From: a virus
DNA length: 64,000 bases
Virus record (IMG/VR): IMGVR_UViG_3300046786_000331
Location: 64,001 to 128,000 of that record
Direction: 5' to 3' (one strand)
A model generated the notes under the pieces. It worked only from the letters and a program-made list of their open reading frames with translations, searched no databases and was not told the origin of the DNA. A program made the translations under genes and the position numbers. Below, piece by piece: positions 1 to 19,639 of the stretch (positions within the stretch are counted from its first letter, which is position 1; the number at the start of each line of letters is the position of its first letter).

Positions 1-36
1 ACAAAGCTAGGGCAAGCGCCAGTTAACGGTGGAGCT

Positions 37-161
37 CATATAAAAACACACTAGTGCATTATAGTGAATCAGGTCGCTCCTGTGGAAGCTATCCATGTAT
101 CAATTGCCCTGGTGGGAAAGGTCGACGAGTGCGGTTCGATTCCGTAGTGTGTTTTTATATG
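37..161 (+). ncRNA. Helix-closed structured RNA element E1 (17-bp terminal inverted repeat, internal T-arm)
   Basis: CATATAAAAACACACTA (37-53) is the perfect reverse complement of 145-161; GCGG-TTCGATT-CCGT T-arm lies just before the 3' strand. Confidence 0.6.
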
Positions 162-235
162 GTGATGTAGTTCAGTGGTAGAACACCTCCTTCATACGGA
201 GACTGTCGGCGGTTCAAGTCCGTCCATCACTACCA
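161..235 (+). tRNA. tRNA-Met/Ile2 (CAT)
   Basis: Cloverleaf, loop TTCATAC, GGTTCAAGTCC T-arm, ACCA end. Confidence 0.9.
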
Positions 236-242
236 GATTTGT

Positions 243-316
243 TGGTCTATGGTGTAATGGTAACACAACAGACTTTGACTCTGTCGTTCCAGGTTCGAGC
301 CCTGGTAGGCCTGCCA
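243..316 (+). tRNA. tRNA-Gln (TTG)
   Basis: ACAGA-CTTTGAC-TCTGT arm, GCCA end. Confidence 0.95.
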
Positions 317-325
317 ACAAACAAT

Positions 326-417
326 GCCAGCGAGACTTGGTAGTCAGAGAGTCCTTATAAGACTTTTAGCGCCAGATTAGCGTTCTTGAGTGGGTTCGAT
401 TCCCACCGCTGGTACCA
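326..417 (+). tRNA. Non-canonical tRNA, anticodon TAT (nominal Ile), long variable arm
   Basis: GCCAGCG/CGCTGGT acceptor, 4-nt D-loop, loop CTTATAA, ~22-nt variable region, T-arm, ACCA. Confidence 0.8.
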
Positions 418-421
418 ATAT

Positions 422-496
422 CGGTCCTTAGTTCAATGGATAGAATGCCATGCTTCGAACTTGGAGATGTGGGTTCGATTCCTGCAGGACCGGCCA
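422..496 (+). tRNA. tRNA-Arg (TCG)
   Basis: Cloverleaf, loop CTTCGAA, GCCA. Confidence 0.93.
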
Positions 497-503
497 AAGA
501 TAT

Positions 504-578
504 GCGCCCGTCGTATAGTGGAGAATACACGATCCTACGAAGTTCGGAACGGTGGTTCGATTCCATCCGGGCGCACCA
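504..578 (+). tRNA. tRNA-Arg (ACG)
   Basis: Cloverleaf, loop CTACGAA, ACCA. Confidence 0.93.
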
Positions 579-583
579 ACAAT

Positions 584-657
584 GTTGTTCCTAGTGTAGT
601 GGCTGCACACCTGTCTGTGAAACAGGTAGAGAGGGTTCGATTCCCCGGTTCAACCCA
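584..657 (+). tRNA. tRNA-His (GTG)
   Basis: CCTGT-CTGTGAA-ACAGG arm, G-1/C73, CCA. Confidence 0.88.
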
Positions 658-667
658 AGGAAATATT

Positions 668-1087
668 ATGGAACAAATGAAAACATACAATACACTAAAA
701 GGTTCCGTGAAAACATTCGAAGAACTCTTAGGCCGTACATTGTACAAAGTAACAGCAGATGGCGAAGAATTAACTTTGTATCTATCCGAAACAAACTATG
801 TAAGATTTTATCACAGCCAAGACTGTTGCGAACATGTGTATATCGAAGATATCTGCGGTGACTTACAAGACTTAGTCGGAGCACCCCTGTTAATAGCAGA
901 AGAAGTATCAGACGAGTTATACGAAGCAGAACATACACCAGATTATTCCGAATCATACACATGGACATTCTATAAGTTTGCTACCCGAAAAGGATATGTA
1001 GACGTTCGGTGGTTTGGTAGTTCAAATGGTTATTATTCTGAAAGTGTAAGTGTTGATTTTGTTGACACCACCTTAGAAGAAGATTAG
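668..1087 (+). CDS. Conserved phage hypothetical protein (HxQDCCE...WTFYK...GxSNGYYSE)
   Basis: ATG at 668 after AAGGA; the longer track ORF (386) runs through tRNA genes. Confidence 0.8.
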   Translation: MEQMKTYNTLKGSVKTFEELLGRTLYKVTADGEELTLYLSETNYVRFYHSQDCCEHVYIEDICGDLQDLVGAPLLIAEEVSDELYEAEHTPDYSESYTWTFYKFATRKGYVDVRWFGSSNGYYSESVSVDFVDTTLEED

Positions 1088-1161
1088 GATGATTATTTCA
1101 GTGGTAGAATAACTCCTCGACACGGAGTAGGTCGCAAGTTCGAACCTTGCATCATCCACCA
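1087..1161 (+). tRNA. tRNA-Val (GAC)
   Basis: ACTCC-TCGACAC-GGAGT arm, ACCA. Confidence 0.9.
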
Positions 1162-1257
1162 TATATGTAAACACACTAGTAAAAGAACGAACATAGTATC
1201 TTAGGGCCTAGCCTGCGGCATTGTCGGATGACGGTGGCTAGTGTGTTTTCATATGTG
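1160..1257 (+). ncRNA. Helix-closed element E2
   Basis: 1160-1179 pairs with 1238-1257 (AAACACACTAG/CTAGTGTGTTT core); fills the tRNA-Val to tRNA-Phe spacer exactly. Confidence 0.55.
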
Positions 1258-1332
1258 CCGCGGTAGCTCATCAGGTAGAGCAGCAGACTGAAAATCTGTG
1301 TGTGGCTGGTTCGAGTCCAGCTCGTGGCACCA
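1257..1332 (+). tRNA. tRNA-Phe (GAA)
   Basis: Cloverleaf, loop CTGAAAA, ACCA. Confidence 0.95.
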
Positions 1333-1335
1333 TAT

Positions 1336-1419
1336 GCGACTGTGGTGTAATTGGTAGCCACAGCAGACTTAAAATCTGCCGCCTTGTGCGTACCGGTTCG
1401 AGTCCGGTCAGTCGCACCA
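1336..1419 (+). tRNA. tRNA-Leu (TAA)
   Basis: Class II cloverleaf, loop CTTAAAA, ACCA. Confidence 0.95.
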
Positions 1420-1450
1420 AATATATTTTCACATTGTTAACCAAAATATG

Positions 1451-1479
1451 TTGACAGGTGATAAATTAGAACATATACT
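1451..1479 (+). promoter_or_regulatory. Sigma70-type promoter
   Basis: TTGACA-17 bp-TATACT. Confidence 0.8.
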
Positions 1480-1509
1480 ATATAGATGCTGTTAACAAAA
1501 CAGTGTAAA

Positions 1510-1522
1510 TGTTCTTTAAAAA
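1510..1522 (+). promoter_or_regulatory. boxA-like antitermination site
   Basis: TGTTCTTTAAAAA vs rrn boxA TGCTCTTTAACAA, ~25 nt after the predicted transcription start. Confidence 0.5.
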
Positions 1523-1539
1523 TTCGTAAAGGTATTTTT

Positions 1540-1623
1540 GCCCCGGTGGTGTAATGGTAGCCACGCTGGTCTTAGAAGCCAGTGGAGAGATCCGTGTCGG
1601 TTCGAGTCCGACCTGGGGCACCA
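1540..1623 (+). tRNA. tRNA-Leu (TAG)
   Basis: Class II cloverleaf, loop CTTAGAA, ACCA. Confidence 0.95.
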
Positions 1624-1726
1624 TATCAAAGTACATAAATGCGTAGGCCACGCAGATGTAGCGGATTACAGCTTTGCCCTGTGCAGAGTAGACAGGTTCA
1701 ATTCCTGTGAATGTACTTTGATATGG
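1621..1726 (+). ncRNA. Helix-closed element E3 (16-bp perfect IR, four internal hairpins including a T-arm)
   Basis: CCATATCAAAGTACAT/ATGTACTTTGATATGG; internal ACAGG-TTCAATT-CCTGT. Confidence 0.6.
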
Positions 1727-1740
1727 TTTAAAAAATTAAA

Positions 1741-2626
1741 GGGTAGTTTATTATCCTGTAGTGTATGGTTCGCCCAGCATTACGAAGAATAAGTGAGGTG
1801 ACTCACCCAAAGCTAGAATGCCTACATACTAGCGCCAGCAATGGTTCATGTAAACAAGCCTGCTCACTGTCGCGAGGCAGCGTTCACTGATAAGACCGGT
1901 GGATGTAACAGCAAAGCTGATGTATGGGGAAGAATGTGTATCGACTGGCCCGCAAGGGAACCAGGGTGCATGAAAAGTAACAGGTGGTGCTGACTTCCAT
2001 ACAAAACCAATCAGTCAGTTGGTATGAGAAAGGGTAGTGTATTGGTTCGAAGGGTCGCACCTAAGAGCTCGTATGCAATGTAAATGGTTAGTGGGTTGTA
2101 GCAATACAGCACATCGATCGTGAAACATCACTGAGTAGCTCGCGAGGCAAAAGGTATGTGGTGAGTTGTATTTCGTATTCCAAAAGATTATGAAGCAACT
2201 GAGGCAGCTCATCGCGGTAGGTTCAATGTAGATCAATGGTAGATCGTCTGTCTTTTAAACAGAATGCTGTGGGTTCAAATCCCATCATTAACAAAAATGC
2301 AAAGACTGCCTCGGTTATGTGTGAAAAGTATCTAATACTTGACACGCAAGTGAATCAAGTCTAATGAAGCTCGCAAGGTAACATTAGTTTATACTGGAAG
2401 TTTCGTAAGTGGTTAGCGCCGCTGAATAGCTCGCAAGGTTAACGGGATAGATGGTGTAGAATAGCACATAACGACAAGCCTACTGCCTGGCTTTAAAAAC
2501 GGCGATGCTGTAAGCAGACTAGGATACCGCAAGGGTCTTAGTGGATGTCTAGAGAACGTATGCTCGCAAGGTGTACGGTAATGCTAGAGGTGCTTATGGC
2601 TTAAGGTGTAATCTCAACCTTAGGCA
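1741..2626 (+). ncRNA. Large ornate ncRNA, probably GOLLD
   Basis: ~890 nt without a credible ORF inside a phage tRNA array; many GCAA/GCGA-capped hairpins; 3' hairpin GCTTAAGGT-GTAATCTCA-ACCTTAGGC; embedded tRNA. Family assignment from recall, not searched. Confidence 0.7.
2221..2292 (+). tRNA. tRNA-Lys (TTT)-like domain embedded in the large ncRNA, no CCA
   Basis: D-arm GATC-AATGGTA-GATC, TCTGT-CTTTTAA-ACAGA, GTGGG-TTCAAAT-CCCAT; bulged acceptor stem. Confidence 0.75.
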
Positions 2627-2728
2627 CTATTATAAAACACATTGGGTTGTTGGTCTTACTTCGATAGTAAGGACAGCGGTGACTGAAGTACAAGGTCGAT
2701 ACGTTGCTACAGTGTGTTTCATAATAGT
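2626..2728 (+). ncRNA. Helix-closed element E4
   Basis: ACTATTATAAAACACATTG (2626-2644) pairs with CAGTGTGTTTCATAATAGT (2710-2728). Confidence 0.55.
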
Positions 2729-2732
2729 TTGT

Positions 2733-2807
2733 GCCTGGATAGCTCAGGGGGAGAGCGTCTGCTTTACACGCAGAGGGTCCGCGGTTCGAAACCGTGTCCA
2801 GGTACCA
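2733..2807 (+). tRNA. tRNA-Val (TAC)
   Basis: Loop TTTACAC, ACCA. Confidence 0.95.
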
Positions 2808-2813
2808 AATATT

Positions 2814-2901
2814 GGAGCATTGGCCGACCGGTTAAGGCAACAGATTGCTAATCTGTCATTCAGCAATGGGTGAGTAGGTTCGATTCCTACATGCTCCGCC
2901 A
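2814..2901 (+). tRNA. tRNA-Ser (GCT)
   Basis: Class II, loop TTGCTAA, GCCA. Confidence 0.95.
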
Positions 2902-2923
2902 GATACAAAAAGGAAAACTAAAA

Positions 2924-3109
2924 ATGATGAAACCAGGCAAAACATTTAAACTCAGCAAGCCTACTAAAACTATGCTTGCATTAGGCGGCTTCCGCAATCA
3001 GGAAGATCGTAATCGTTGGAAACGTGCAATGATTGATGCAGAACTTTGCAGTGCTGTACAGCCAAAGCGTGAAAAGCGTCCAAGCGGTCCACAAGGAAAT
3101 ACCCAGTAA
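2924..3109 (+). CDS. Small basic hypothetical protein
   Basis: AAGGA SD then ATG at 2924. Confidence 0.7.
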   Translation: MMKPGKTFKLSKPTKTMLALGGFRNQEDRNRWKRAMIDAELCSAVQPKREKRPSGPQGNTQ

Positions 3110-3369
3110 TGGTAGCCCGTAACGATATTACCGGCGATGTTATCCAAACAAAGGGTGCATCTTCTTCTTATCGTGATAACTACGATAACATTTTTAGGAA
3201 AGATAAAATGCAAGTTAGAGTACAAGAAAACGAGTCAGAAATTGGCAAGTGTGGTTGTGGTCGCAGTCCAACTGGAAAATGTATCGGGTGGCATGGTCTA
3301 ACCGAAGCCGACTTTCAATCTAAGTTAGCCAACTTTATGGCTGAAGAACAATTGAAAGAAGATAAGTAA
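3109..3369 (+). CDS. Hypothetical protein with CDGSH-like Cys/His (Fe-S/Zn) motif
   Basis: CGCGRSPTGKCIGWH; TAATG coupling. Confidence 0.65.
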   Translation: MVARNDITGDVIQTKGASSSYRDNYDNIFRKDKMQVRVQENESEIGKCGCGRSPTGKCIGWHGLTEADFQSKLANFMAEEQLKEDK

Positions 3370-3375
3370 AACACT

Positions 3376-3451
3376 GGGGGTATAGCTCATCTGGTAGAGC
3401 AGGTGCTTTGCAAGCATCAGGTGGCAGGTTCGAGTCCTGTTGCCTCCACCA
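3376..3451 (+). tRNA. tRNA-Ala (TGC)
   Basis: G3:U70, loop TTTGCAA, ACCA. Confidence 0.95.
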
Positions 3452-3503
3452 AGCACTCTCCATGACACACGGAGTATAATGTGATAAGTTGTGTGTTAAC
3501 TTT

Positions 3504-3577
3504 GCCCTTATAGTTAAATGGTATAACGACGGTTTTGTAATCCGTAATTTGCAGTTCGATTCTGTGTAGGGGCACCA
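3504..3577 (+). tRNA. tRNA-Thr (TGT)
   Basis: Loop TTTGTAA, ACCA. Confidence 0.92.
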
Positions 3578-3586
3578 AAGAATTAT

Positions 3587-3662
3587 TCCCTAGTAGCTCA
3601 GCGGTAGAAGCACCTGACTGTTAATCAGGGTGTCGGTGGTTCGATCCCACCCTGGGGAGCCA
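3587..3662 (+). tRNA. tRNA-Asn (GTT)
   Basis: Loop CTGTTAA, GCCA. Confidence 0.95.
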
Positions 3663-3694
3663 GTTTTGCTAGTTTCTTAAAACTAGCCAGTGAA

Positions 3695-3898
3695 GTGAAA
3701 GGTAGATGAGGATAGACAAAACCATTTGGCTTCATGCTAAATGAACAATACTCCAGACACCCTTGAAAAGTGTTCGTGTTGTTGTGCTCCGGCCCTAAAG
3801 ATTTTGTTATTTGATTTCCGGAAATATAATGGCCTCTGTGGATTGCTTTTTGAACATTGTAATTTGCACATTGTCCGGTCTATTACTTGACCTTTCAT
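3695..3898 (+). ncRNA. Candidate structured RNA with 7-nt periodic UUG tract
   Basis: Closing helices GTGAAAGGT/ACCTTTCAT and GATAGAC/GTCTATT; TTG at 3843, 3850, 3857, 3864, 3871 and at 3804, 3811. Confidence 0.55.
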
Positions 3899-3915
3899 GG
3901 ATCTGTTGTTATAAT
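3887..3915 (+). promoter_or_regulatory. Sigma70-type promoter for rpoZ
   Basis: TTGACC-17 bp-TATAAT. Confidence 0.7.
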
Positions 3916-3942
3916 AGTTTATACAAACACAAAGGACATAAC

Positions 3943-4188
3943 GTGGCTAGATATACATCAGAAGCAGCAGTAGAAGCAATTGGAAACAGATTTAACCTAG
4001 TGCTAGCCGCTAGTCAACGAACCCGTGAACTTAAACGAGGTCATGCACAACTTGTAGACGGTAAAGACGCAAGTTTTAACGTTACAGCTTTGCGTGAAAT
4101 CGAAGCAGGCAAATATACAATGAAAGACTACTTGGATTCGATTCCAAGAAAACAAAAAGGACGTAGAAATGAATTTGACATTACGTAA
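3943..4188 (+). CDS. rpoZ: RNA polymerase omega subunit homolog
   Basis: GTG after AAGGA; MAR...NRFNLVLAASQRTREL...TALREIEAG. Confidence 0.9.
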   Translation: MARYTSEAAVEAIGNRFNLVLAASQRTRELKRGHAQLVDGKDASFNVTALREIEAGKYTMKDYLDSIPRKQKGRRNEFDIT

Positions 4189-4744
4189 GGCAAACGCTAT
4201 CCAGAATAGCATCAACGAGGCAATCAAAGGCATCGAGATTAAGACAACTGTAGAACTAAACGAGTTCCAAGCAGTTGAGGCAGAGTTGCAAAAAGCAAAC
4301 ACAACATTGTTTGCAAATGACGCTCGCCGTCAAAAGCTGTTGTTGGCTTTGTATAACATTCGCGGGCTAGTTGGCACTGCGAACGCTAGTGCAGGTATTG
4401 ACCTGAGCCTAGCAAAGGCAGCGTTTATTGATAAACGCATTGCACAGCTCGACGAGCTAGCAAAGGCAGAAGTTATCACTGATCTTGCAGTGATTACGGG
4501 TAAGCTAGACAAGATTAAAAATGACAAGAGTGAAACTGCTCGTAGTCGTATCTACGGATACAATGACACAGTTTCAACTAGTGTTGTAAGTGCTGAGCAA
4601 TCAGCATCGATTAAGAATGAGATTAAAAATCTCAAGAAGCAAAAACAAAAACTCAATGACGAAGTTCTTGAGTTAAACATCAAGACAGAGATTCCTTTGT
4701 CAGATGATGTAGTGGCAACACTAACAGCTGAAGGCTTAATCTAA
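4169..4744 (+). CDS. Long coiled-coil protein (resembles DIP1984-like family)
   Basis: All-helical heptad pattern; C-terminal KKQKQKLNDEVLELNIKTEI; family resemblance by eye only. Confidence 0.75.
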   Translation: MNLTLRKANAIQNSINEAIKGIEIKTTVELNEFQAVEAELQKANTTLFANDARRQKLLLALYNIRGLVGTANASAGIDLSLAKAAFIDKRIAQLDELAKAEVITDLAVITGKLDKIKNDKSETARSRIYGYNDTVSTSVVSAEQSASIKNEIKNLKKQKQKLNDEVLELNIKTEIPLSDDVVATLTAEGLI

Positions 4745-4940
4745 CAGACCCCGGGTTCCGAGCAACCGTTATTGCTCGGGGTTATTGAATAGACCAAACT
4801 ATTCACTGTGCGTAGGATCTACAGCAAGGCCTGTTCGGCGACTTGAGAATATCCTAGGTAGACGAATAGTCCAACCAAAAGGGACAACGTGGACGGAGTA
4901 AACGCCCAGTTTAGGGCTCCTGTGGTGGGAGTGGCTAAAC
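4745..4940 (+). ncRNA. Candidate structured RNA
   Basis: GC-richer intergenic stretch with hairpins CCGAGCAA/TTGCTCGG, TGAATAG/CTATTCA, TAGGAT/ATCCTA, GTTTAG/CTAAAC. Confidence 0.45.
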
Positions 4941-5058
4941 ACTTTATTAGAATACATTAGGAGTTTGTCTGGAATCCAGTATCAAGCAATTGATATCCAG
5001 AACGGAGTAACGTGGGCAAGATGGATTTTGCTACGCCGACAGTGTATTCTAATAAAGT
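4941..5058 (+). ncRNA. Helix-closed element E5
   Basis: ACTTTATTAGAATACATT pairs with AGTGTATTCTAATAAAGT; internal TATCAA-GCAA-TTGATA hairpin. Confidence 0.55.
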
Positions 5059-5069
5059 TAAATAGTTGT

Positions 5070-5633
5070 ATGTCGACAGATAGATTTTACAAACAAACTA
5101 CAATTCCTGCTCCTAGTGTAGATTACAAAACAATATGGAATGTAGATCCTAAAGATCCTGCTGACACAAATCCAAGATGGTTAACTTATCCTAAGGATAG
5201 TAAAATCTGGAATGACGACATATTAAATAGATTAAAAACTGTTGGACTAAAACCGAGACTTATAAGAGTCTTTAGATGGAAACCCAACAGTGTGTTTCCT
5301 TGGCATATCGACGGTTCAGTAAATGAAATTACTGAATTTGCAATTAATTGGGTATATGAAGGCAGTGGAATTATTCAGTGGAATTCAAGTTTAGAATTAC
5401 CTAAACCTGCTGAAAAAAATTACCATCTTGCTTACGGGTCTTTTAATGGTAAAGCCGAAGATAAATTTGAAGCAGAAGCATTAGGACATGGATGTGTAGT
5501 TAACACTACTATTCCACACAGAGTTTTGAATTTAAGTGACGTTCATAGAATTACTGTTTCAATACAGTTTGGAAATGAATTCACTTATAGTGAAACTGTA
5601 GAGAAATTAAAATCCTGCGGTTTCATAGAATAA
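5070..5633 (+). CDS. Fe(II)/2OG oxygenase-like (cupin) protein
   Basis: WHID...PHRV...RITVS; TAAATA 5 nt before ATG. Confidence 0.7.
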   Translation: MSTDRFYKQTTIPAPSVDYKTIWNVDPKDPADTNPRWLTYPKDSKIWNDDILNRLKTVGLKPRLIRVFRWKPNSVFPWHIDGSVNEITEFAINWVYEGSGIIQWNSSLELPKPAEKNYHLAYGSFNGKAEDKFEAEALGHGCVVNTTIPHRVLNLSDVHRITVSIQFGNEFTYSETVEKLKSCGFIE

Positions 5634-5638
5634 GTTAT

Positions 5639-5712
5639 AGCGGGTAGGGCGGCCACCACTCCAGTCTCATAAGCTCGGAGCATCCCAGGTTCAAATCCTG
5701 GACCCGCATCCA
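5639..5712 (+). tRNA. Atypical tRNA-Met (CAT), initiator-like 1:72 mismatch
   Basis: Loop CTCATAA, T-arm CCAGG-TTCAAAT-CCTGG, TCCA; degenerate D-arm. Confidence 0.7.
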
Positions 5713-5717
5713 TATAT

Positions 5718-5794
<77 letters not shown>

Positions 5795-5810
5795 TCAACA
5801 TAAAGGCAAT

Positions 5811-5993
5811 ATGACTAAAGAAGAAGAAAAAGCAGCAACAGATTTAGCACTTGAAGAATTCTTTGCAAAAGGCGGCGTGGTTCAAAAATTAAAACCTAAT
5901 CAAAGTGGAAGAGTAGAAGGTGCAGGTTATTCACCTTGGTCTAAGAAACCCTCTACTAGTCCGTTAGCAAATCCTCCTGAAGACGAAGAATAA
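5811..5993 (+). CDS. Small hypothetical protein
   Basis: AAAGG SD; EFFAKGGVVQKL motif. Confidence 0.7.
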   Translation: MTKEEEKAATDLALEEFFAKGGVVQKLKPNQSGRVEGAGYSPWSKKPSTSPLANPPEDEE

Positions 5994-6068
5994 CTTGCTG
6001 TAGTTCAATGGATAGAACGGCTCTCTCCTAAAGAGTAGATCCAGGTTCGATTCCTGGTGGCAGGACCA
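5994..6068 (+). tRNA. tRNA-Arg (CCT)
   Basis: Loop CTCCTAA, ACCA. Confidence 0.93.
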
Positions 6069-6082
6069 GCTATAAATATGTT

Positions 6083-6916
6083 ATGGAATTTTCTTCTCTA
6101 GCATACGCAAAAATAAATCTTGAATTTGATCGAGAAATATTCATTCAAGAATATGATGCACATATCCTTCCGCACACTCGTCAACTGATGAACGGCGAAG
6201 GCGGTATGTTAGCAACTAAAGAATTAAATAAAATTTGGAACATGGTTCCTGAAGAAGAATACAGCACTGCTGATTCTTGGGAACAGCCAGGAGATGTTAC
6301 AACATTCAAAGCTATCATTAAAGGTCGTCAAATGTGGGATTTTGTACAAATCCTAACACTAAAAACTACCGATGGTGATCATCCTTTAATTAAACGTATG
6401 GCTGAAAAGGGTAGCGTAGGTTTACGCAATGAAACACTTGGCCGTGAATACTTTATTAAAGAACAATTTAAAGATTTAAAAATAGTTAAATGGATTTACG
6501 ATAGTTTACCATTAACTATGATTAACAGTATACAATGTGTATCTTTGCCACCGAACTCTTTCTCTACAATTCATAGAGATGGCAAAGGATTGATATCTGA
6601 AAATTTCAGTGGCGGAGTAAACAAAGTTTACAAGTCTGGTTTTGTTGTTATTAACATAAACATAACAGACGGTGGTGTTCCGTTATATTGGGCACCGGAT
6701 CATGCTCCTAGAGCTTGCGAAAAAGCAAACGATCCTGTATACTTAACTAACGATTATTTGTTACATGGTGTTCCAATTTGTACATCAAGACGTAGACAAA
6801 TAAGAGTTACTGGAATTCCAACACAGGAATTAGAGAGTTTGATAGATAAAGATACAATTTTTGATCTAGGCGAAAATTATAAATTTGCCGAGTTAAAGGA
6901 TCATTATAAATATTAA
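6083..6916 (+). CDS. Fe(II)/2OG oxygenase-like protein, paralog of 7663-8487
   Basis: IHRD...LHGV...RRQIR; TATAAATA at 6071-6078. Confidence 0.75.
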   Translation: MEFSSLAYAKINLEFDREIFIQEYDAHILPHTRQLMNGEGGMLATKELNKIWNMVPEEEYSTADSWEQPGDVTTFKAIIKGRQMWDFVQILTLKTTDGDHPLIKRMAEKGSVGLRNETLGREYFIKEQFKDLKIVKWIYDSLPLTMINSIQCVSLPPNSFSTIHRDGKGLISENFSGGVNKVYKSGFVVININITDGGVPLYWAPDHAPRACEKANDPVYLTNDYLLHGVPICTSRRRQIRVTGIPTQELESLIDKDTIFDLGENYKFAELKDHYKY

Positions 6917-6919
6917 CAT

Positions 6920-6993
6920 GCGGGGTTCGTATAGTGGTAATACCTTAGCCTTCCAAGCTAATGCTGAGAGTTCGATTCTCTTACCCCGCTCCA
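6920..6993 (+). tRNA. tRNA-Gly (TCC)
   Basis: Loop CTTCCAA, TCCA. Confidence 0.95.
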
Positions 6994-6997
6994 TTTT

Positions 6998-7573
6998 ATG
7001 CACACAGTAATAGACCAAAACGATATTTTTCGAAAGTTTAATTTTAGTTCCGTGATTACACCGGAAGATAATCAAGAAGCCATAGGCATTATAAAAAGTA
7101 TTATTGCCGACGGAAACTATTTTACTAATTCTCCAAAATATCAAACAAAAGAAAATATTTTTGCTAGACAGGAATCTGTATGGTTAAAGTATAGAATGAG
7201 TTTTTTGTTTAGTGTGTTTATGTACTTGGGTCGTGAAGTTAAGGTATCAAATATGATGGCCTGGAGTTTCATGACAAATCTCGAAGGTGCAGAAGATAGA
7301 GAAAAATTGTGGCATAATCATTGGCATCCACAAAATCCAAATAACAAAATGTTAAGCGGAATCTTTTATCTTCACATTCCAGAGAATGTACAAGACAGAG
7401 ATTATTGCGGAACAGAAATGGCTCCCAATGGTCCTACCGGTGACGGTAAATACTTCGTTAAACCAACTGATGGAAATTGGTTAGTTTATCCAAGTAATCA
7501 ATGGCATAGACCCGGCATTGTGCAAAGCAATGATTATAGGTTTATTTTAGCTGTTGATGTAGAATATCAATAA
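6998..7573 (+). CDS. Putative 2OG-Fe(II) oxygenase
   Basis: HNH...LSGIFYL...YPS..WH...RFILA. Confidence 0.7.
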   Translation: MHTVIDQNDIFRKFNFSSVITPEDNQEAIGIIKSIIADGNYFTNSPKYQTKENIFARQESVWLKYRMSFLFSVFMYLGREVKVSNMMAWSFMTNLEGAEDREKLWHNHWHPQNPNNKMLSGIFYLHIPENVQDRDYCGTEMAPNGPTGDGKYFVKPTDGNWLVYPSNQWHRPGIVQSNDYRFILAVDVEYQ

Positions 7574-7574
7574 T

Positions 7575-7650
7575 GCGGGCGTAGCTCAGTTGGTAGAGCA
7601 TTACCTTGCCAAGGTAAATGTCGAGAGTTCGAACCTCTTCGCCCGCTCCA
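7575..7650 (+). tRNA. tRNA-Gly (GCC)
   Basis: Loop TTGCCAA, TCCA. Confidence 0.95.
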
Positions 7651-7662
7651 ATAAATACCTTT

Positions 7663-8487
7663 ATGAATTTTTCAACACTTGCTCATGCAAAACTAAATCT
7701 AAGTTTTGATCAAGAGCTTTTCATAAAGGAATATGACAAGCGCATATATCCTAAATCATTCCCCATTTCTGCGGGAGTTGAATCTATCAATCGTACCATC
7801 AAATTGAATCAAACATGGAACATGGTTGATCCTAATATCTACGAACAAATCAATACAAACAGAGTTGACGAAAAGGGTGTGTATACTCCTATCGATAGAG
7901 GTCGCAAATCTTGGGTCATGCGACAACTGCTAGAACTAGATACTACAGAGATAACAAATCCTGTACTATTAAAATTTGCATCTATCGGAGGTGTTGGGTT
8001 GCGCAATGCTGCATACCAACATAATTTTAAAGTTAAAGAAGATTGTAAAGATTTACAGATTGTTGATTGGATTTATAAAAATTTACCTTTTGAAAAAATA
8101 GTAAGTATACATTGTGTTGCTATTGACCCAGATGGGTTTGCTCCGATACATAGAGATGACAAGAGTTTATTTGACAATAAGTCTAGTGTAGGCACTAATT
8201 TGTTCTACAAAAATAACTTTGTAATCATTAACATAAACGTCAGCAGTGGCGGTGTTCCTTTGTGTTGGGGACTTGACATGCCTAATGCAGATAACTGCCA
8301 TAAAGCTGACGATGCTGTTTATCTAACTAATGATTATTTCTTACACGGTGTTCCGCAGGTTACATCTCGAAGAAGACAAATACGTGTATCCGGAATTCCA
8401 AAACCAGAAATGTACGAACTATTTGATAAACAATCTATAGTTGACGTAGGCAACGATTATATTTTTAATCCTTTGTATCCAGGTTAA
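7663..8487 (+). CDS. Fe(II)/2OG oxygenase-like protein, paralog of 6083-6916
   Basis: IHRD...LHGV...RRQIR; N- and C-terminal blocks shared with the paralog. Confidence 0.75.
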   Translation: MNFSTLAHAKLNLSFDQELFIKEYDKRIYPKSFPISAGVESINRTIKLNQTWNMVDPNIYEQINTNRVDEKGVYTPIDRGRKSWVMRQLLELDTTEITNPVLLKFASIGGVGLRNAAYQHNFKVKEDCKDLQIVDWIYKNLPFEKIVSIHCVAIDPDGFAPIHRDDKSLFDNKSSVGTNLFYKNNFVIININVSSGGVPLCWGLDMPNADNCHKADDAVYLTNDYFLHGVPQVTSRRRQIRVSGIPKPEMYELFDKQSIVDVGNDYIFNPLYPG

Positions 8488-8515
8488 ATAGTAGCACTTA
8501 AAGGAAACATATTAA

Positions 8516-9976
8516 ATGGATGTTGTATTATGGAATGCGGGACCGGATTATACCCCCTATACAATTTTTAGAACATTAGGCCCATATAAAATTTCTCATG
8601 CAACAAGAAATGCAGGTTACACTTCGCAGGTTATCGATCATGTTAATTGGATGACTGAAGAGGAGTTGTATAACTGTACAATTAAGTTTGTTGACAACGA
8701 AACAACGCTTCTTGGTATTTCCACAACATTCTTAATGGCTGGTACTCATGAACTGCCTGCACACGCATTAAATGTCTTACATCGAATCACAGAAGAGTTT
8801 CCTAAAATACATGTTGTGTTTGGCGGCTATCAGGCAAGAGATCCGACCTTAAGAAACATCATTAGGGCCAAGTACTCTGTTATATTAGAGTACGGTGAAG
8901 ATACCTTTGTTGAGTTATTAGAATATCACAAAGGTAAAGGCAAGTTGCCTCCTTTCACATTGATTACAAGACCCTGGGGCAACGTAAAAGTTTTCAAAAC
9001 TCCCAAGGTACAAAAATTCGATATCGAAAAAGACAATCATTTGTTCACTGATCAAGATTGTATTCTTCCCAACGAAACACTGCCTATTGAAATCAGTAGA
9101 GGCTGTATTTTCAAATGTAAGTTTTGTAATCACTTAATGCTAGGGCGAGGTAAATTAGATTACCTTCGAAGCATGGAATGTGTAAAACAAGAGTTGATTC
9201 ACAATTACGAGAAGTGGAACATTACAAACTATTACATCATTTGTGATACGTTTAATGACACTGAGTATAAGATGCAAGAGTGGCATAAGATGGTAACGTC
9301 ATTGCCTTTCAAGATACAATATACTGCATACCTAAGAGCAGACTTATTAGACAGATATCCAGATGTTCCTTATCTTTTAAAAGAGTCAGGACTGATATCT
9401 GGATTCCACGGAATTGAAACTCTAAGTCAACACGGATCAACAGTCATCGGAAAAGGATGGAGTGGCAAGAAAGCCAAGGACTATATTCCTAAACTCTATC
9501 ACGATATCTGGGGTGGTGAAGTTTTTCAAACCTTGAGTTTTATTGTTGGCTTGCCCGGGGATACTAGAGAAACATTTGTTGATACATTAGATTGGTTTGA
9601 GCAGAATGATTTACATCACATGGCTATTCACAATCTAGGAATCAACAACAATAAGTTTAACAAGCATCTAAGTGAGTTTGACTTAAATGCTGAAAGCTAT
9701 GGTTATACGTTTCCTTGGCCCGAGCGTCCGTGGGCATGGAAAAATGATCAATGGGATCATGATCAAGTAGAAGCGTTTGTTAAAGAACAACAACCTAGAA
9801 TCGGAAAAATATCTGCATGGTATGGTTCGTGGGTTACACTAATGTTGATGCAATACGGGTTTGATAAGAGCTTGTTTAAAAAGGAAGCATCTAGAACAGC
9901 ATTTACAGTACCTCAGTTAAATAGTTTAGCGAAAGAACAAATTCAGCGTTATATTAAAAAAATATTAGAACTATGA
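8516..9976 (+). CDS. B12-binding-type radical SAM protein
   Basis: SRGCIFKCKFC (CxxxCxxC), N-terminal GISTTF...VFGG, GIET, FIVGLPGDT. Confidence 0.85.
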   Translation: MDVVLWNAGPDYTPYTIFRTLGPYKISHATRNAGYTSQVIDHVNWMTEEELYNCTIKFVDNETTLLGISTTFLMAGTHELPAHALNVLHRITEEFPKIHVVFGGYQARDPTLRNIIRAKYSVILEYGEDTFVELLEYHKGKGKLPPFTLITRPWGNVKVFKTPKVQKFDIEKDNHLFTDQDCILPNETLPIEISRGCIFKCKFCNHLMLGRGKLDYLRSMECVKQELIHNYEKWNITNYYIICDTFNDTEYKMQEWHKMVTSLPFKIQYTAYLRADLLDRYPDVPYLLKESGLISGFHGIETLSQHGSTVIGKGWSGKKAKDYIPKLYHDIWGGEVFQTLSFIVGLPGDTRETFVDTLDWFEQNDLHHMAIHNLGINNNKFNKHLSEFDLNAESYGYTFPWPERPWAWKNDQWDHDQVEAFVKEQQPRIGKISAWYGSWVTLMLMQYGFDKSLFKKEASRTAFTVPQLNSLAKEQIQRYIKKILEL

Positions 9977-11109
9977 TACCCGAGATAAGTTACCCAAATG
10001 TGTTAGTACCCGTTGCGTTTCCAGAGGATCCTCTGTTAGACAAGGCATCGGTATTGTCTCAATTTGACAATAACACAGGGTTACAGGTATTGCATCTTAA
10101 AGAAGATATCCTTAAACCAGATGTAGTAAAGATGCTTGCTGACAGAAATCTGTCAATAGATAAGATAGATGTTTGGCGCTGGAACCTATCAATGACTAGA
10201 GGACAACCACCGCACACTGATGGCGGCTACGGAGATACAAAAGGTAGAAAGGTTGGACTGAATTGGTCATTGGCTCCTGATAATAGCAGTATCGACTTTT
10301 ACGATACTGCGTATGGTACTCCACAATTCGAAGCCATTGAAGATAGAAGCCATACTTTTTGGAAGATGGCTGAAGGCACTAAGCCGTTAGTTTCGTGGCG
10401 CAATAGATATCCCTCAGTTATTAATACTCAAACACCACATGCTATCACTGGACCCGAGGGTGAGTTTCGTTATAGCATGACAATAAAGTTCGTAGGAAAT
10501 CCTAGCTTCGACGAAGTAATTTCTAATTTGTGGGATTTACGATTAGATACTGATTGCTGGCCATTAAAAATGTCAGATGAAGAAGTTGAGATTGTTAAAC
10601 AAGAAGTAATCAAATTAGAAAAACTTCCAAACGTTGTTCAGAATGTAGGAGAGAAAATTGCTTCTTATAAGCTGCCTATTGTTCCTGATAGTTTGCTGGT
10701 AAAAACAATAGAAAAATACTGTAAGAGAAAATTTAAATCTTTTCGAATTTTTCATATGCAACCAGGTGTAAGAGCCGAGATGCATGTTGACTATGATCAA
10801 TGGCTTAAAGTTATTCCTGGATATGCTTTAAACTTTCCATTGTTTGGCTGCGAAGATAGCAGCGTAGAATTTTTTAGAAATCTTGGTGATCAAGAAGCTA
10901 GATCGCACGAAAAGTCCGGAGTGGGCGGATATCTATATCCCACAGATCCTAATAAGGTGTTTTTAAATCATACATTGTATATGTTAGAGCCACATCTTAT
11001 TAGAGTTAACGTTCCACACTTAGTTGATAATTTTTCTAATCATGAAAGAAAGATTTTAAGTGTGCGATTCTTTGAAGAAGAAAACGACCTCCCTTCAAAC
11101 ATAATTTAG
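9973..11109 (+). CDS. Tandem two-domain cupin/2OG oxygenase-like protein
   Basis: PHTD...PHAI...RYS and MHVD...PHLV...RKILS. Confidence 0.7.
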   Translation: MIPEISYPNVLVPVAFPEDPLLDKASVLSQFDNNTGLQVLHLKEDILKPDVVKMLADRNLSIDKIDVWRWNLSMTRGQPPHTDGGYGDTKGRKVGLNWSLAPDNSSIDFYDTAYGTPQFEAIEDRSHTFWKMAEGTKPLVSWRNRYPSVINTQTPHAITGPEGEFRYSMTIKFVGNPSFDEVISNLWDLRLDTDCWPLKMSDEEVEIVKQEVIKLEKLPNVVQNVGEKIASYKLPIVPDSLLVKTIEKYCKRKFKSFRIFHMQPGVRAEMHVDYDQWLKVIPGYALNFPLFGCEDSSVEFFRNLGDQEARSHEKSGVGGYLYPTDPNKVFLNHTLYMLEPHLIRVNVPHLVDNFSNHERKILSVRFFEEENDLPSNII

Positions 11110-11184
11110 CTGGCCATCGTATAATGGATAATACAACTCTCTTCTAAAGAGTGAATGTGGGTTCAATTCCTGCTGGCCGGACCA
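11110..11184 (+). tRNA. tRNA-Arg (TCT)
   Basis: Loop CTTCTAA, ACCA. Confidence 0.93.
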
Positions 11185-11189
11185 GACAT

Positions 11190-11263
11190 GCTCTCATAGT
11201 TAAATGGTAGAACGCCTCTTTGGTATGGAGGTGATGAAAGTTCGATTCTTTCTGAGAGCACCA
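11190..11263 (+). tRNA. tRNA-Thr (GGT)
   Basis: Loop TTGGTAT, ACCA. Confidence 0.92.
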
Positions 11264-11292
11264 TTGACAAAGTAAATAAGAGAAAGTATAAT
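11264..11292 (+). promoter_or_regulatory. Consensus sigma70 promoter (leaderless to ATG 11299)
   Basis: TTGACA-17 bp-TATAAT. Confidence 0.85.
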
Positions 11293-11298
11293 AACAGA

Positions 11299-11529
11299 AT
11301 GTATAAAGTAAACGGAAAAAACGTAATGTATGAAGTGCATACATTAGATGAAGCAATGAAGTGGGCAAAGCAAATGAATGAGTTTGTTACTATTGTAGGT
11401 GACGACTTTGAAGTATGTGGAATGTTCGGAGTAGACAGCATCAAGGACGGAAAGTGTCCAGACGGTGTTGCATACGATTGGAACAAGGCATCACGTATCG
11501 GAAGAGTAAAGAAAGAACGAGTAGTATAA
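11299..11529 (+). CDS. Hypothetical protein
   Basis: ORF directly after promoter, coupled to pth2. Confidence 0.75.
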   Translation: MYKVNGKNVMYEVHTLDEAMKWAKQMNEFVTIVGDDFEVCGMFGVDSIKDGKCPDGVAYDWNKASRIGRVKKERVV

Positions 11530-11909
11530 TGGAACACAAGCAAGTCATTGTAATGCGTAAGGATTTAAACATGCGAAAGGGCAAGTTAGTTGCTCAAGGA
11601 GCTCATGCTTCTCTTGGCGCAATTTTAAGTCTTTGTAAGCAGGACGGAGACAAGCTAATTCTTGAAATGGACGAACGTACTAGGCCTTGGCTTACAGGAC
11701 GTTTCAAGAAAATTTGTGTTTATGTAAACACTGAGCAAGAGTTATTAGATATTCATCAGGAAGCAAAACTGCATGGACTAGTAACCAGCCTTATACAAGA
11801 TGCAGGACTAACAGAATTTGGTGGTGTTAAAACATATACCGCTGTTGCAGTAGGTCCGGATCGAGAAGATAGAATCGATGCAGTTTGTAAACATTTACCG
11901 TTATATTAA
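11529..11909 (+). CDS. pth2: Peptidyl-tRNA hydrolase type 2
   Basis: KQVIVMRKDLNMRKGKLVAQGAHAS...IQDAGLTE...TAVAVGP...HLPLY. Confidence 0.92.
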   Translation: MEHKQVIVMRKDLNMRKGKLVAQGAHASLGAILSLCKQDGDKLILEMDERTRPWLTGRFKKICVYVNTEQELLDIHQEAKLHGLVTSLIQDAGLTEFGGVKTYTAVAVGPDREDRIDAVCKHLPLY

Positions 11910-11919
11910 GGAGAACCAT

Positions 11920-12597
11920 ATGAAACGTGTAATCGAAATTCGTGCCGCAGAAGGTGGCGAAGATAGTAAGTTATTTGTAAGTGATCTCGCGACTGCTTAC
12001 AGCAAATTAGGAATGAAGCTGGGCTGAACTACCCGCCTGATAGATGTGCGTCAAGGTGAATGTAGTTTAGAAGTTCAGGGCGCAGATTTATCCGGCTTAG
12101 ATAACGAGCCAGGTGGACATAGGATACAGCGAGTTCCACCAACCGAAAGGAAGGGGCGTGTCCATACAAGCACAGTAACGGTTGCAGTCATAGACTCCGA
12201 CACAGAAATTGGATCTGTTTCTATACTAGAAAAAGATTTAAAAATCGAATGGTATAGCGGTACTGGTGCTGGAGGTCAATACAGGAACAAACATCAAAAC
12301 TCATGCCGGATAACTCACATACCTACAGGTACTGTAGCTAAAGCAGAGTGCAGAAGTAGGACAAATAGTCTTGAAGAAGCTATGGCTGCTATACAACAAC
12401 GAGTTGACACAGCAGCTAATAGGCAGTACACTAATAGTATCGCTAGCAATAGAAAGCAACAAGTTGGCTCCGGAATGCGAGGAGACAAAATTCGCACTTA
12501 TCGCTTTCAAGACGATACTGTGCAGGATCACGTAACCGGTAAAAAAGCAAACGCTAAAAAAGTGTTATCTGGTAACTTTGACTTACTTTGGAACTAA
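11920..12597 (+). CDS. N-truncated RF1-like class I release factor with in-frame TGA at 12025-12027
   Basis: AAGGAG SD, ATG 11920; IEIRAAEGG, G-stop at the usual GW position, HRIQRVPPTE..GRVHTS (PxT), GAGGQ, RIRTY-like KIRTY. Confidence 0.85.
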
Positions 12598-12816
12598 ATG
12601 GCAAAAGACGATATCATTGAATTGACAGGCACAGTTGAAGAAGTATTGCCGGGCAATATGTTTAAAGTGAAGGTAGACAACCTTCCTAATCTATTGCTCT
12701 GCTATACTAGCGGAAAACTTAAACAACACAAGATTAGAATTATTCTCGGTGACAAAATTAAGTTAGAAGTTAGTCCATACGACCTCACTAAAGGTCGTGT
12801 AACATACAGATTATAA
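12598..12816 (+). CDS. infA: Translation initiation factor IF-1
   Basis: MAKDDIIE..G.V.EVLP...SGKLK...IRII.GD...EVSPYDLTKGRVTYR. Confidence 0.95.
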   Translation: MAKDDIIELTGTVEEVLPGNMFKVKVDNLPNLLLCYTSGKLKQHKIRIILGDKIKLEVSPYDLTKGRVTYRL

Positions 12817-12817
12817 T

Positions 12818-13069
12818 ATGACAAAAGAAATTCCAGTTCACAGAGATCAATTAGGTCGAGTACTTAATATGGGAGACTGTGTTGCTTATCCTCAGAGCAA
12901 CAGTCTTGTGATTGGTGTTGTTCGTAAGATTAATCCTAAGATGATTGGTGTTCGAAGAATCGGTAAAAATGGTTGGGGTTCAGAGAAAAACAAATATCCT
13001 GTAGATTGTGTTAAACTCGACGGCCCTGAAGTTACAATGTTTATTATCAAGAACGCAGGTACAGAATGA
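12818..13069 (+). CDS. Hypothetical protein
   Basis: Tightly packed ORF. Confidence 0.7.
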   Translation: MTKEIPVHRDQLGRVLNMGDCVAYPQSNSLVIGVVRKINPKMIGVRRIGKNGWGSEKNKYPVDCVKLDGPEVTMFIIKNAGTE

Positions 13070-13260
13070 TTTACATTTTAATGATTTGGACAGTAGTAGG
13101 TGTAGGTGCTGCTGATAGGACTCCTAACATTATCAAAATGGATTGGCGTCCACTCGGCGAGTTTTATTCGGGTATAGATAACGGTAAAGAAATGTGTGAA
13201 AAAGCTGCTCGTGAGCTTGGTTTGAAAACTGAAAACTATCGTTGCATTAGGAGCAAGTAA
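13066..13260 (+). CDS. Small hypothetical protein with hydrophobic N-terminus
   Basis: ATGA overlap. Confidence 0.65.
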   Translation: MIYILMIWTVVGVGAADRTPNIIKMDWRPLGEFYSGIDNGKEMCEKAARELGLKTENYRCIRSK

Positions 13261-13520
13261 TGAAATTCATCCGTCAAGTAATCAGAGGTGCAGGATATCT
13301 TGAAGGCTACGGTGATCACCCGGGCAAAGACGCAGTAGTGATAACGCTTCTTGTTTGCGGTCTTGCAGGAATTGAGAAGGGCGGACTTACTGGATTCCTG
13401 GGAGGCATGGCCATTGGAGCAATCTTTGTTCTTCCGTTATTTGTCGTCGGTTGTATTGATCGTGCAAATGCCTGTGATAAACAACAGGCTCTGTTATTAG
13501 AGAAGATTAAGAATAGTTAA
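13260..13520 (+). CDS. Hypothetical membrane protein
   Basis: Two hydrophobic segments. Confidence 0.65.
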   Translation: MKFIRQVIRGAGYLEGYGDHPGKDAVVITLLVCGLAGIEKGGLTGFLGGMAIGAIFVLPLFVVGCIDRANACDKQQALLLEKIKNS

Positions 13521-13535
13521 CCGTGAGGAGTTATC

Positions 13536-13907
13536 ATGAGTATGTATAATATGATTTTTGGAATGAACCCAGACACTGATAAGATCCTATCATTGTTGGG
13601 TAAGACACAGGGCGATTTCGGTCGCTTCCGCAGTGTATTTCTCGAGGACGGTTATATTGTTGTTCACACACGCAACGGTGGTGGCAATCGTGAAGACTAT
13701 GAAGATGTCTTTGAAGAAATGTCTGATCATCCTTGGTACAGTCACGACGAAGATGACAGCTTCGACTGCACTTATGCAAACATCTACTTCAAGGTGCCTG
13801 AAGGTAAAGAAGAAACATTAGTAGCATTGCACAACTTTGATAAAGGTGCTAATCCTGCTAATCAGTGGGCAGAACTCTTTGCCATGATGGAAGCATTGAA
13901 GAAGTAA
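13536..13907 (+). CDS. Conserved phage hypothetical protein
   Basis: GAGGAG SD; RFR...TRNGGGNR...DDSFDCTYA. Confidence 0.8.
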   Translation: MSMYNMIFGMNPDTDKILSLLGKTQGDFGRFRSVFLEDGYIVVHTRNGGGNREDYEDVFEEMSDHPWYSHDEDDSFDCTYANIYFKVPEGKEETLVALHNFDKGANPANQWAELFAMMEALKK

Positions 13908-14619: not shown

Positions 14620-14648
14620 TTGACGCTCTCCTAGAATGGTGCTATAAT
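14620..14648 (+). promoter_or_regulatory. Sigma70-type promoter
   Basis: TTGACG-17 bp-TATAAT. Confidence 0.75.
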
Positions 14649-14681
14649 GTTTATACACAGACACATTTTTAGGAGTAGATT

Positions 14682-15576: not shown

Positions 15577-15577
15577 T

Positions 15578-15877: not shown

Positions 15878-15889
15878 CAGGGAGTTATT

Positions 15890-16726: not shown

Positions 16727-16736
16727 AGGAATTAAC

Positions 16737-19636: not shown

Positions 19637-19639
19637 AAT

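Follow-up and report, generated by a model that had tools for sequence, protein, structure and literature searches.

Analysis of a 64,000-nucleotide (nt) stretch of viral DNA (hereafter the window; bases 64001 to 128000 of IMGVR_UViG_3300046786_000331, a 146-kb IMG/VR virus record that is approximately 41% complete) revealed that positions 3688 to 3905 on the + strand encode a structured noncoding RNA with a 218-nt core. This RNA, which constitutes a structured RNA family new relative to Rfam 15, carries a comb of UG dinucleotides that recur every 7 nt, and it sits between a transfer RNA (tRNA) gene, tRNA-Asn (ending at 3662), and an overlapping gene pair, rpoZ and a 191-amino-acid open reading frame (ORF) at 4169 to 4744 on the + strand that we label cc191. 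From the conserved neighborhood, we strongly infer that the RNA and cc191 act as one module.

A search with the cc191 protein yielded 80 related loci in viruses, nearly all of which share approximately 230 nt of the 280-nt spacer at about 68% identity. The RNA structure was assessed on an alignment of 42 relatives (A1), for which the RNAalifold consensus has 51 pairs and shows compensatory changes at 22 of these; 98.4% of cells were paired on the consensus structure. Pairs changed on both sides numbered 22, compared with 13.3 in shuffled alignments (none of 500 shuffles reached the observed value), and slid controls, in which partners were moved by 1 to 3 columns, gave 2 to 8 such pairs. Several pairs are invariant G-U, indicating that the + strand is the strand that folds. 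The region also overlaps a 49-codon ORF in the window; because the homologous stretch is spread almost evenly over length classes modulo 3 (25/26/22 over 73 sequences) and its frame remains open in only 13 of the 73, it is not coding. An Rfam 15 cmscan of window positions 1 to 12000 at an E value of ≤1 gave no match to this RNA, and scans of 3660 to 3945, at an E value of ≤10 with lax filters, and of 7 related or distant loci gave only chance-level matches, such as bxd_6 (18 bits against a 50-bit threshold) and mir-310 (17 bits against 48). An earlier reading made from the letters of this DNA and a list of its ORFs (the sequence-only reading) had proposed a structured, transcribed element closed by two helices. 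Both helices are real, being kept across the 42 relatives with compensatory changes, and the core as a whole is supported by conservation, covariation, the invariant G-U strand mark, the lack of a conserved ORF, and contigs from RNA libraries.

The closing helix, made up of P1, a 3-nt bulge, and P2, encloses two or three hairpins and a P4 domain, all on the + strand. The 5′ strand of P1 (CAG and GTGAAAGGT; 3688 to 3703) pairs with 3890 to 3905, with 3688 to 3690 facing 3903 to 3905 and GTGAAAGGT at 3695 to 3703 facing ACCTTTCAT at 3890 to 3898; A1 columns 34:284 (UA/CG/UG) and 35:283 (GC/AU) covary. The sequence of P1 is wholly different in loci L186, L188, L192, and L194 and in the Caulobacter and Brevundimonas phages described below: L188 has GTATGG/CCATAC, L194 has GGAGAGAAG/CTTCTCTCC, and L183 has CAGAAAGAAAGAAAG and its complement. 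The bulge (AGA; 3704 to 3706) is invariant or nearly so (A1 columns 42 to 44), and by eye distant lineages also have a 3-nt 5′ bulge, AUA in Domovoi and CAG in L194; a K-turn at this junction was considered and rejected by eye, as tandem G-A pairs are lacking. P2 pairs TGAGGATAGAC (3707 to 3717) with 3878 to 3889, leaving A3885 bulged; it is 98.9% paired, contains invariant G-U pairs, and shows a change from UA to AU at columns 51:269 in 6 sequences. Within the closing helix, a putative variable hairpin, P2a (3723 to 3743), comes from the minimum-free-energy fold of the window, and hairpins of differing sequence were seen by eye at its place in the alignment. P3 (ACAC/GTGT; 3757 to 3773) has 5 of 7 pairs changed on both sides. 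The P4 domain (3778 to 3833) consists of P4a, pairing 3778 to 3786 with 3825 to 3833, and P4b, pairing 3789 to 3792 with 3818 to 3821; both are 100% paired, with compensatory changes in 5 of 9 and 2 of 4 pairs, respectively, and P4b reads CCGG/CCGG in the window and CCAAAG/CTTTGG, CCAGGA/TCCTGG, or CCGAG/CTCGG in distant lineages. Positions 3834 to 3877 are unpaired in the consensus fold and lead straight into the 3′ strand of P2. Just upstream of the core, 5 nt past tRNA-Asn, stands a further hairpin, P0 (GCTAGTTT-CTTA-AAACTAGC; 3668 to 3687, + strand), in which 6 of 8 pairs changed on both sides; by eye, a hairpin occupies the same place in distant lineages.

The comb is distributed over two parts of this fold. 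Block A (3805 to 3813, + strand) lies in the loop of P4b and has UG at 3805-3806 and 3812-3813, 7 nt apart; blocks B and C (3836 to 3874, + strand) have UG at 3837, 3844, 3851, 3858, 3865, and 3872 and are unpaired in the RNAalifold consensus. The triplets listed in the sequence-only reading (TTG at 3843, 3850, 3857, 3864, and 3871, CTG at 3836, and TTGTTAT and TTGATTT at 3804 and 3811) are all present in the sequence. Its description of a kept triplet with varying spacers was right about the spacers, but the conserved unit is UG and not strictly UUG. Among 73 distinct relatives (59 to 79% identical), the UG dinucleotide is invariant in blocks A, B, and C (2.0 bits), the four or five bases between UGs carry 0.4 to 1.4 bits, and every sequence has at least four UGs in the 7-nt register. 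The block A pair is also found in L183, L189, L192, L193, L194, and the Caulobacter phage CcrPW. The conserved unit is WUUGY in the clade of the window and YUG or GUGC in the Brevundimonas phages, the number of units ranges from 3 to 7 across lineages, and one relative (L186) differs by exactly one 7-nt unit. In most relatives (69 distinct), a variable hairpin whose pairs covary separates unit four from unit five; the subclade of the window (with L086, L087, and L113) has lost this hairpin at 3864 with the 7-nt register exactly kept, which accounts for the unbroken run of seven in the window.

The run in the window is the only one of at least five identical triplets at periods 4 to 12 in the 64 kb, but 15% of Markov-shuffled windows contain one as well, which makes the window by itself weak evidence for the comb. 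The comparison between lineages gives a strong signal. Over 11 lineages, runs of UG in register reach 3 to 7 units at period 7, which stands apart from periods 4 to 6 and 8 to 12, where they reach at most 3 (combined Fisher P = 3e-11 for period 7; as the 11 lineages are homologous to each other, this value measures retention, not independent origin, and overstates independence). Taken together, these patterns of conservation indicate that the 7-nt UG register has been kept by selection.

Linkage of the RNA to cc191 was apparent from both directions. When IMG/VR was scanned with the RNA motif only, without protein information, 105 stretches of the clade of the window were found, and in all untruncated loci cc191 follows the RNA on the same strand. 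These loci fall into two spacing classes: either cc191 begins 32 to 40 nt past the RNA, with rpoZ 750 to 1300 nt further on, upstream, or absent, or it begins approximately 250 to 300 nt past the RNA, with rpoZ between them in nearly all cases. We also looked up eight distant cc191 clusters, ranging from 57% down to 37% identity, and in all eight a noncoding gap of approximately 280 to 510 nt adjoins cc191 and holds a diverged RNA of the same architecture, upstream of the gene in L186/187, L188, L189, L190, L192, and L193 and downstream of it in L183/184 and L194. The comb of these distant copies has 3 to 5 units, and P1 and P4b still pair despite their different sequence. In every untruncated locus examined, the RNA adjoins a cc191 homologue; the sequence-only reading had tied its proposal to a periodic RNA beside homologous genes, and this was found in about 170 close loci, in 9 of 9 distant clusters, and in 7 of 7 cultured phages. 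Searches of viral contigs with the distant single proteins P0030 and P0144 found no related loci, and blastn of the region against a phage collection gave matches to tRNAs only. One 6.9-kb contig, L061 (= L120), holds two diverged RNA-cc191 modules (618 to 1445 and 3147 to 3974) 2.5 kb apart, with RNAs 83% and proteins 69% identical; an assembly chimera of two strains is possible. A candidate third cc191 copy on this contig (6309 to 6875) was dismissed, as it has no similarity. Close by, an ORF at approximately 6081 to 6297 reads by eye like translation initiation factor IF-1 (a small S1-like protein), which would give these phages one more gene related to translation.

By tblastn, the family was traced to cultured phages, namely the Caulobacter phages CcrColossus and CcrPW and seven Brevundimonas jumbo phages, whose cc191 homologues are 27 to 33% identical to the query used. 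In all seven of the cultured-phage records that we opened, an unannotated gap of 285 to 315 nt lies directly 3′ of the cc191 homologue and holds the RNA. The comb of CcrColossus reads UUUGUGGG UUGCGCG UUGUCCG UUGUAGC UUGCCCU UUGUCCA, that is, six UUG at exact 7-nt spacing, and that of Kikimora has six (C/G)UG units; an alignment of the seven sequences has an invariant UG every 7 nt (CcrColossus positions 206/7, 213/4, 220/1, 227/8, 234/5), and P1 covaries among them. When RNAalifold is run on these seven sequences, it folds part of the comb against the 5′ strand, a solution with many broken pairs that we took to be an artefact of aligning different subclades. A literature search on noncoding RNAs of CcrColossus found nothing useful.

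The protein itself offers few clues to its function. The family comprises 870 representatives of 50%-identity clusters at an E value of ≤1e-3, those listed being approximately 185 to 191 amino acids long. Searches of Pfam, PHROG, and NCBIfam (E value of ≤1) placed cc191 in no family, and a PDB sequence-profile search gave nothing significant (best match HP1242, E value of 0.018 over 44 residues). An AlphaFold2 model built with 137 relatives (predicted local distance difference test score, 96.2) consists of helices at residues 5 to 21, 36 to 75, 77 to 98, 106 to 117, 142 to 172, and 179 to 187 and two short strands; conserved polar residues include R6, K7, Q12, R65, N72, K89, K115, K156-K159, and N170. 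The sequence-only reading had correctly placed this ORF and the rpoZ gene between it and the RNA, and had described the product as a long coiled-coil protein like DIP1984. The modeled protein is helical, as a bundle with two short strands and no family match, and the DIP1984 label finds no support in sequence: NCBIfam gave no match, CT398_CC (PF24481) scored 16.2 bits against a cutoff of 27, and the Pfam search reported no zinc ribbon, the C-terminal feature of CT398-type members. The only hint in its favor is a weak fold resemblance to 3kdq, a Corynebacterium diphtheriae protein whose function is not known. Foldseek against PDB gave nothing below an E value of 1e-3, and 3kdq was its best match (E value of 0.046, template modeling score of 0.40 to 0.48); it was also the first and only full-length row in VIA-align (Z score of 10.6 over 141 residues, root mean square deviation of 7.3 Å), where Z scores below about 13 are common for helical bundles, so that this match is within the range of chance. 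Literature searches on DIP1984 and 3KDQ found nothing useful. Fold matches in BFVD were uncharacterized proteins of CcrColossus, Vibrio phage Vp_R1, Erwinia jumbo phage pEa_SNUABM_47, and two giant viruses, and those in ESM Atlas were unnamed viral clusters and one 149-amino-acid cluster with DUF6847 in 19% of its members.

To judge expression, we used RNA libraries, six of which contain this stretch, and compared contigs from four metatranscriptomes (four samples). Contig depth was 2,000 to 20,000 for an RNA of the known GOLLD family upstream, mostly 9 to 45 for the tRNA and ORF stretch at 2669 to 3503, and mostly 53 to 587 for the RNA, rpoZ, and cc191; in these four lake metatranscriptomes the RNA region stands at 5 to 45 times the depth of the upstream tRNA stretch. 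In library X10 a contig starts at 3683 with a depth of 81, compared with 9 just upstream; an X1 contig (3690 to 4789) covers the RNA, rpoZ, and cc191 at 169, compared with 36 just upstream; an X2 contig (3396 to 4881) has a depth of 269, compared with 38 upstream; and an adaptor-flanked X7 contig holds the RNA only (3705 to 3876) at 587, compared with 53 for 4069 to 5347. Depth is thus far from uniform, and the reads are not simply contaminating DNA: the region is transcribed, as the sequence-only reading had supposed. The same depths hint weakly that levels of the RNA exceed those of its neighbors and that its 5′ boundary is near the start of P1. Low cover by RNA libraries elsewhere in the window was not taken as silence.

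Candidate promoters were found on both sides of the RNA. Consensus sigma-70 promoters precede it in L190 (12/12) and L193 (11/12) and lie between it and cc191 in L186 (12/12) and L190 (11/12). The window has a sigma-70-like promoter (TTGACC, 17 nt, TATAAT; 11/12) at 3887 to 3915 on the + strand, which overlaps the 3′ strands of the RNA and ends 28 nt before rpoZ. Its −10 hexamer is not shared by the whole clade, and its −35 hexamer TTGACC is part of P1/P2, L189 having TTAACT with a compensating AAAAGT. We therefore rejected a −35 function as the cause of TTGACC conservation, since the hexamer belongs to P1/P2 and covaries with it, although it probably also serves as a −35 element in the window. 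Downstream of cc191, a hairpin with a weak U tail (CCGAGCAA-CCGTTA-TTGCTCGG; 4758 to 4779, + strand) was read from the sequence, the terminator scan making no call there, and the X1 contig ends near it, at 4789. Beside it, a stretch of approximately 127 nt (4760 to 4886) is flanked by adaptor on both sides in X1, with depth bins of 340 to 650 against 169 and 16 alongside; it may be a discrete small RNA.

The gene rpoZ (RNA polymerase omega, 81 amino acids; 3943 to 4188, + strand) was identified by PF01192 (43.1 bits against a cutoff of 26, E value of 4.4e-11) and TIGR00690 (43.5 bits against 23.6, E value of 2.4e-11), and in the window it overlaps the start of cc191. It is near the RNA-cc191 pair only in the clade of the window and in L190, and within the clade it moves to 750 to 1300 nt downstream or 1.5 kb upstream. 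We considered it as a third universal partner and rejected this, as its position varies and small ORFs elsewhere are not omega, among them those that follow the RNA in the phages of Caulobacter and Brevundimonas and those flanking it in L192 and L194; rpoZ is a clade-specific neighbor outside the conserved module. In L190 it directly follows cc191 (1028 to 1261; PF01192 at 1e-8).

The surroundings of the RNA in the window are rich in tRNA genes, with 23 in the first 12 kb beside small ORFs and the GOLLD RNA (2158 to 2620; Rfam, 215 bits), which lies about 1 kb 5′ of the comb RNA. The flanks of GOLLD have depths of about 10 to 40 in the four lake metatranscriptomes in which its own contigs are so deep. 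A tRNA-Lys(UUU) gene (2222 to 2293) is embedded inside GOLLD, and an X7 contig (depth 196) joins 2223 to 2290, skipping it, which could reflect either an insert-free strain or excision of the tRNA and rejoining. An atypical long tRNA lies at 326 to 417: ARAGORN calls a 92-nt tRNA-Ile(UAU), and the best Rfam match is tRNA-Sec at 33.8 bits against a threshold of 47.

We tentatively favor, at somewhat less than even confidence, a mechanism in which the helix-clamped comb serves as a docking rail, each protomer of the reader taking one unit. The closing helix would hold the comb out, and protein protomers would bind one per 7-nt unit, each reading UG and ignoring the spacer, much as HutP does with NAG triplets; cc191 would be the most likely reader, and the product a multicopy ribonucleoprotein. 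In the phage of the window, the RNA would be made from the tRNA-array transcript and accumulate above the neighboring mRNA, and in other lineages it would come from its own promoter; the particle might sequester or deliver a factor for translation or transcription. A more specific version seems doubtful to us: cc191 protomers would line up along the comb at one per 7 nt, with the RNA setting the length of a small helical-protein filament, a new phage ribonucleoprotein found from lake jumbo phages to CcrColossus that would target the translation or transcription machinery of the infected host. Several observations weigh against a docking rail read by cc191. Its neighborhood shows shared function, not contact, and the loci all belong to a single broad lineage of phages, in which some of the synteny could reflect inheritance and not selection. 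Proteins of the family are close to neutral (median isoelectric point of 6.2, net charge of about −1), no RNA-binding domain was recognizable in the Pfam, PHROG, NCBIfam, and PDB profile searches, and the fold neighbors are uninformative helical proteins. The minimum-free-energy fold of the window pairs part of the comb with itself (approximately 3837 to 3846 with 3859 to 3868, as counted from the dot-bracket string), a pairing that is not conserved, and the contig depths are coarse and cannot give the ends, strand, or level of the RNA.

The charge of cc191 and its lack of a known RNA-binding domain would suit another reader, a host or phage oligomer or a multidomain protein such as ribosomal protein S1 (six oligonucleotide/oligosaccharide-binding domains), with cc191 acting in the same pathway and making no contact with the comb. 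The comb is kept from lake phages of 39% GC to GC-rich Caulobacter phages, a span that a conserved protein of the cell could explain as well as one from the phage, and the module lies among translation-related genes, namely, the tRNA array. We nevertheless think such a reader unlikely: no other gene is consistently adjacent, the neighbors of the pair differing between lineages, and no homologue of HutP (PF09021), TRAP (TrpBP/MtrB, PF02081), or Ro (TROVE, PF05731) was found in the 146-kb record, which represents about 41% of the genome. Moreover, where the genes of an RNA and its dedicated protein remain neighbors across such divergence, as for Y RNA and Ro or tmRNA and SmpB, the two products usually bind each other. 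A comb with no protein reader at all, which makes tertiary or quaternary RNA contacts as in GOLLD and ROOL or pairs with repeated CA or CAA in a target RNA, strikes us as improbable. A GOLLD RNA is encoded close upstream and reaches very high abundance in these RNA libraries, GOLLD and ROOL reportedly form RNA-only multimers (bioRxiv 10.1101/2024.12.08.627333), and two conserved bases per unit are compatible with RNA-RNA contacts; on the other hand, no complementary periodic CA/CAA strand was seen by eye in the RNA, a period of 7 matches no helical repeat, and a comb of this kind would not account for why the RNA is so closely linked to one protein family.

A role as a 5′ leader that controls rpoZ and cc191 in cis, whether as an autoregulatory operator or as a riboswitch, has some appeal in the clade of the window, where the RNA ends 32 to 60 nt before the next start codon, where RNA-library contigs join the RNA, rpoZ, and cc191, and where, in the window, the terminator scan found no intrinsic terminator after the RNA. 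However, the RNA is downstream of cc191 in L183, L194, and 7 of 7 cultured phages, consensus promoters intervene between RNA and gene (L186 and L190) or overlap the 3′ end of the RNA (the window), and in X7 the RNA has about 10 times the depth of the genes. Taken together, these observations indicate that the RNA is a separate gene and not a leader only, and we give a cis-acting leader a small chance. Long closing helices resemble RNase III processing stalks, and the closing helix here is long, so the element might be a mere processing stem between the tRNA array and the mRNA, its UG periodicity a functionless relic of a decayed 7-nt tandem repeat; the Kikimora comb does look like a tandem repeat of CUGUGNN, and the statistic from the window by itself is weak. 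Yet decay would not explain why, with the spacers randomized, two particular bases are invariant in 73 sequences and persist in clades with only 27 to 33% identity in the cc191 protein; in addition, the internal helices covary, and the element also occurs away from tRNA arrays with its own promoter, so we regard a stem of this kind as very improbable.

Structured RNAs with a dedicated protein are few, and the signal recognition particle, RNase P, tmRNA, Y RNA, and CRISPR guide RNAs each opened a field. The present RNA would add a new RNA family found in large phages, with 105 IMG/VR stretches in one clade and 870 cluster representatives of the partner family. A comb with two conserved bases per 7-nt unit predicts a stoichiometric, phase-reading partner, for which cc191 is a named candidate, and the presence of the module in cultured phages of Caulobacter crescentus (CcrColossus and CcrPW) and Brevundimonas makes it directly testable.

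Among known systems, GOLLD and ROOL are likewise conserved, abundant structured RNAs beside tRNA genes of large phages, but they measure 500 to 800 nt, compared with approximately 220 to 260 nt for the comb RNA, are unrelated to it in sequence and fold, and differ from it in that the comb RNA has a dedicated protein neighbor. The pairs of Y RNA with Ro/Rsr and of tmRNA with SmpB are similar in that an RNA with a long terminal helix lies beside a dedicated protein gene, in either order, in phages and bacteria; they differ in that our RNA has no Rfam match to Y RNA, YrlA, or tmRNA and no tRNA-like domain, and the comb has no counterpart there. A Y-RNA identity was considered, since GGUAGxUGAG and ACUUGAC resemble human Y RNA stems, and was rejected: Rfam gave no match, these motifs take part in different pairings, and the 146-kb record, about 41% complete, yielded no TROVE protein. 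Helical nucleoproteins provide another parallel: the origin of assembly of tobacco mosaic virus has a G every 3 nt, and paramyxoviruses have a C every 6 nt, so that, as may hold for the comb, the spacing of a conserved base or dinucleotide equals the footprint of one protomer in nucleotides. In those viruses, however, capsid or N protein coats a genome, whereas the comb would be a short rail in a folded small RNA of a DNA phage.

TRAP, which the sequence-only reading had offered as its precedent, shares with the comb a regularly spaced short motif with variable spacers, and its reader is a homo-oligomer, an 11-mer ring; its sites are 9 to 11 (G/U)AG triplets with spacers of 2 to 3 nt, compared with 4 to 5 nt around UG here, and are part of a leader with alternative terminator and antiterminator states. 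That likeness holds, but HutP on the hut leader of Bacillus subtilis is the closer precedent. HutP binds three NAG triplets in 7-nt units (U1-U7, U8-U14, and U15-U21) whose spacers are sequence independent (PMC2425495). The comb resembles this in its 7-nt units, in 4-nt spacers that are sequence independent, and in groups of sites split by a linker. It departs from HutP sites in its motif (UG within WUUGY, preceded by U or Y and never AG, compared with NAG, in practice UAG), in its number of units (7 to 9 in blocks of 2, 3 to 6, and 2, compared with 3+3), in its setting (a stand-alone, helix-clamped RNA compared with a terminator leader), and in its candidate partner, which is all helical. HutP sites are read by identical subunits of an oligomer, and such a reader is here only proposed; should cc191 indeed read the comb, it would represent a second, unrelated solution to the problem solved by HutP and TRAP, on a stand-alone RNA and not on an mRNA leader.

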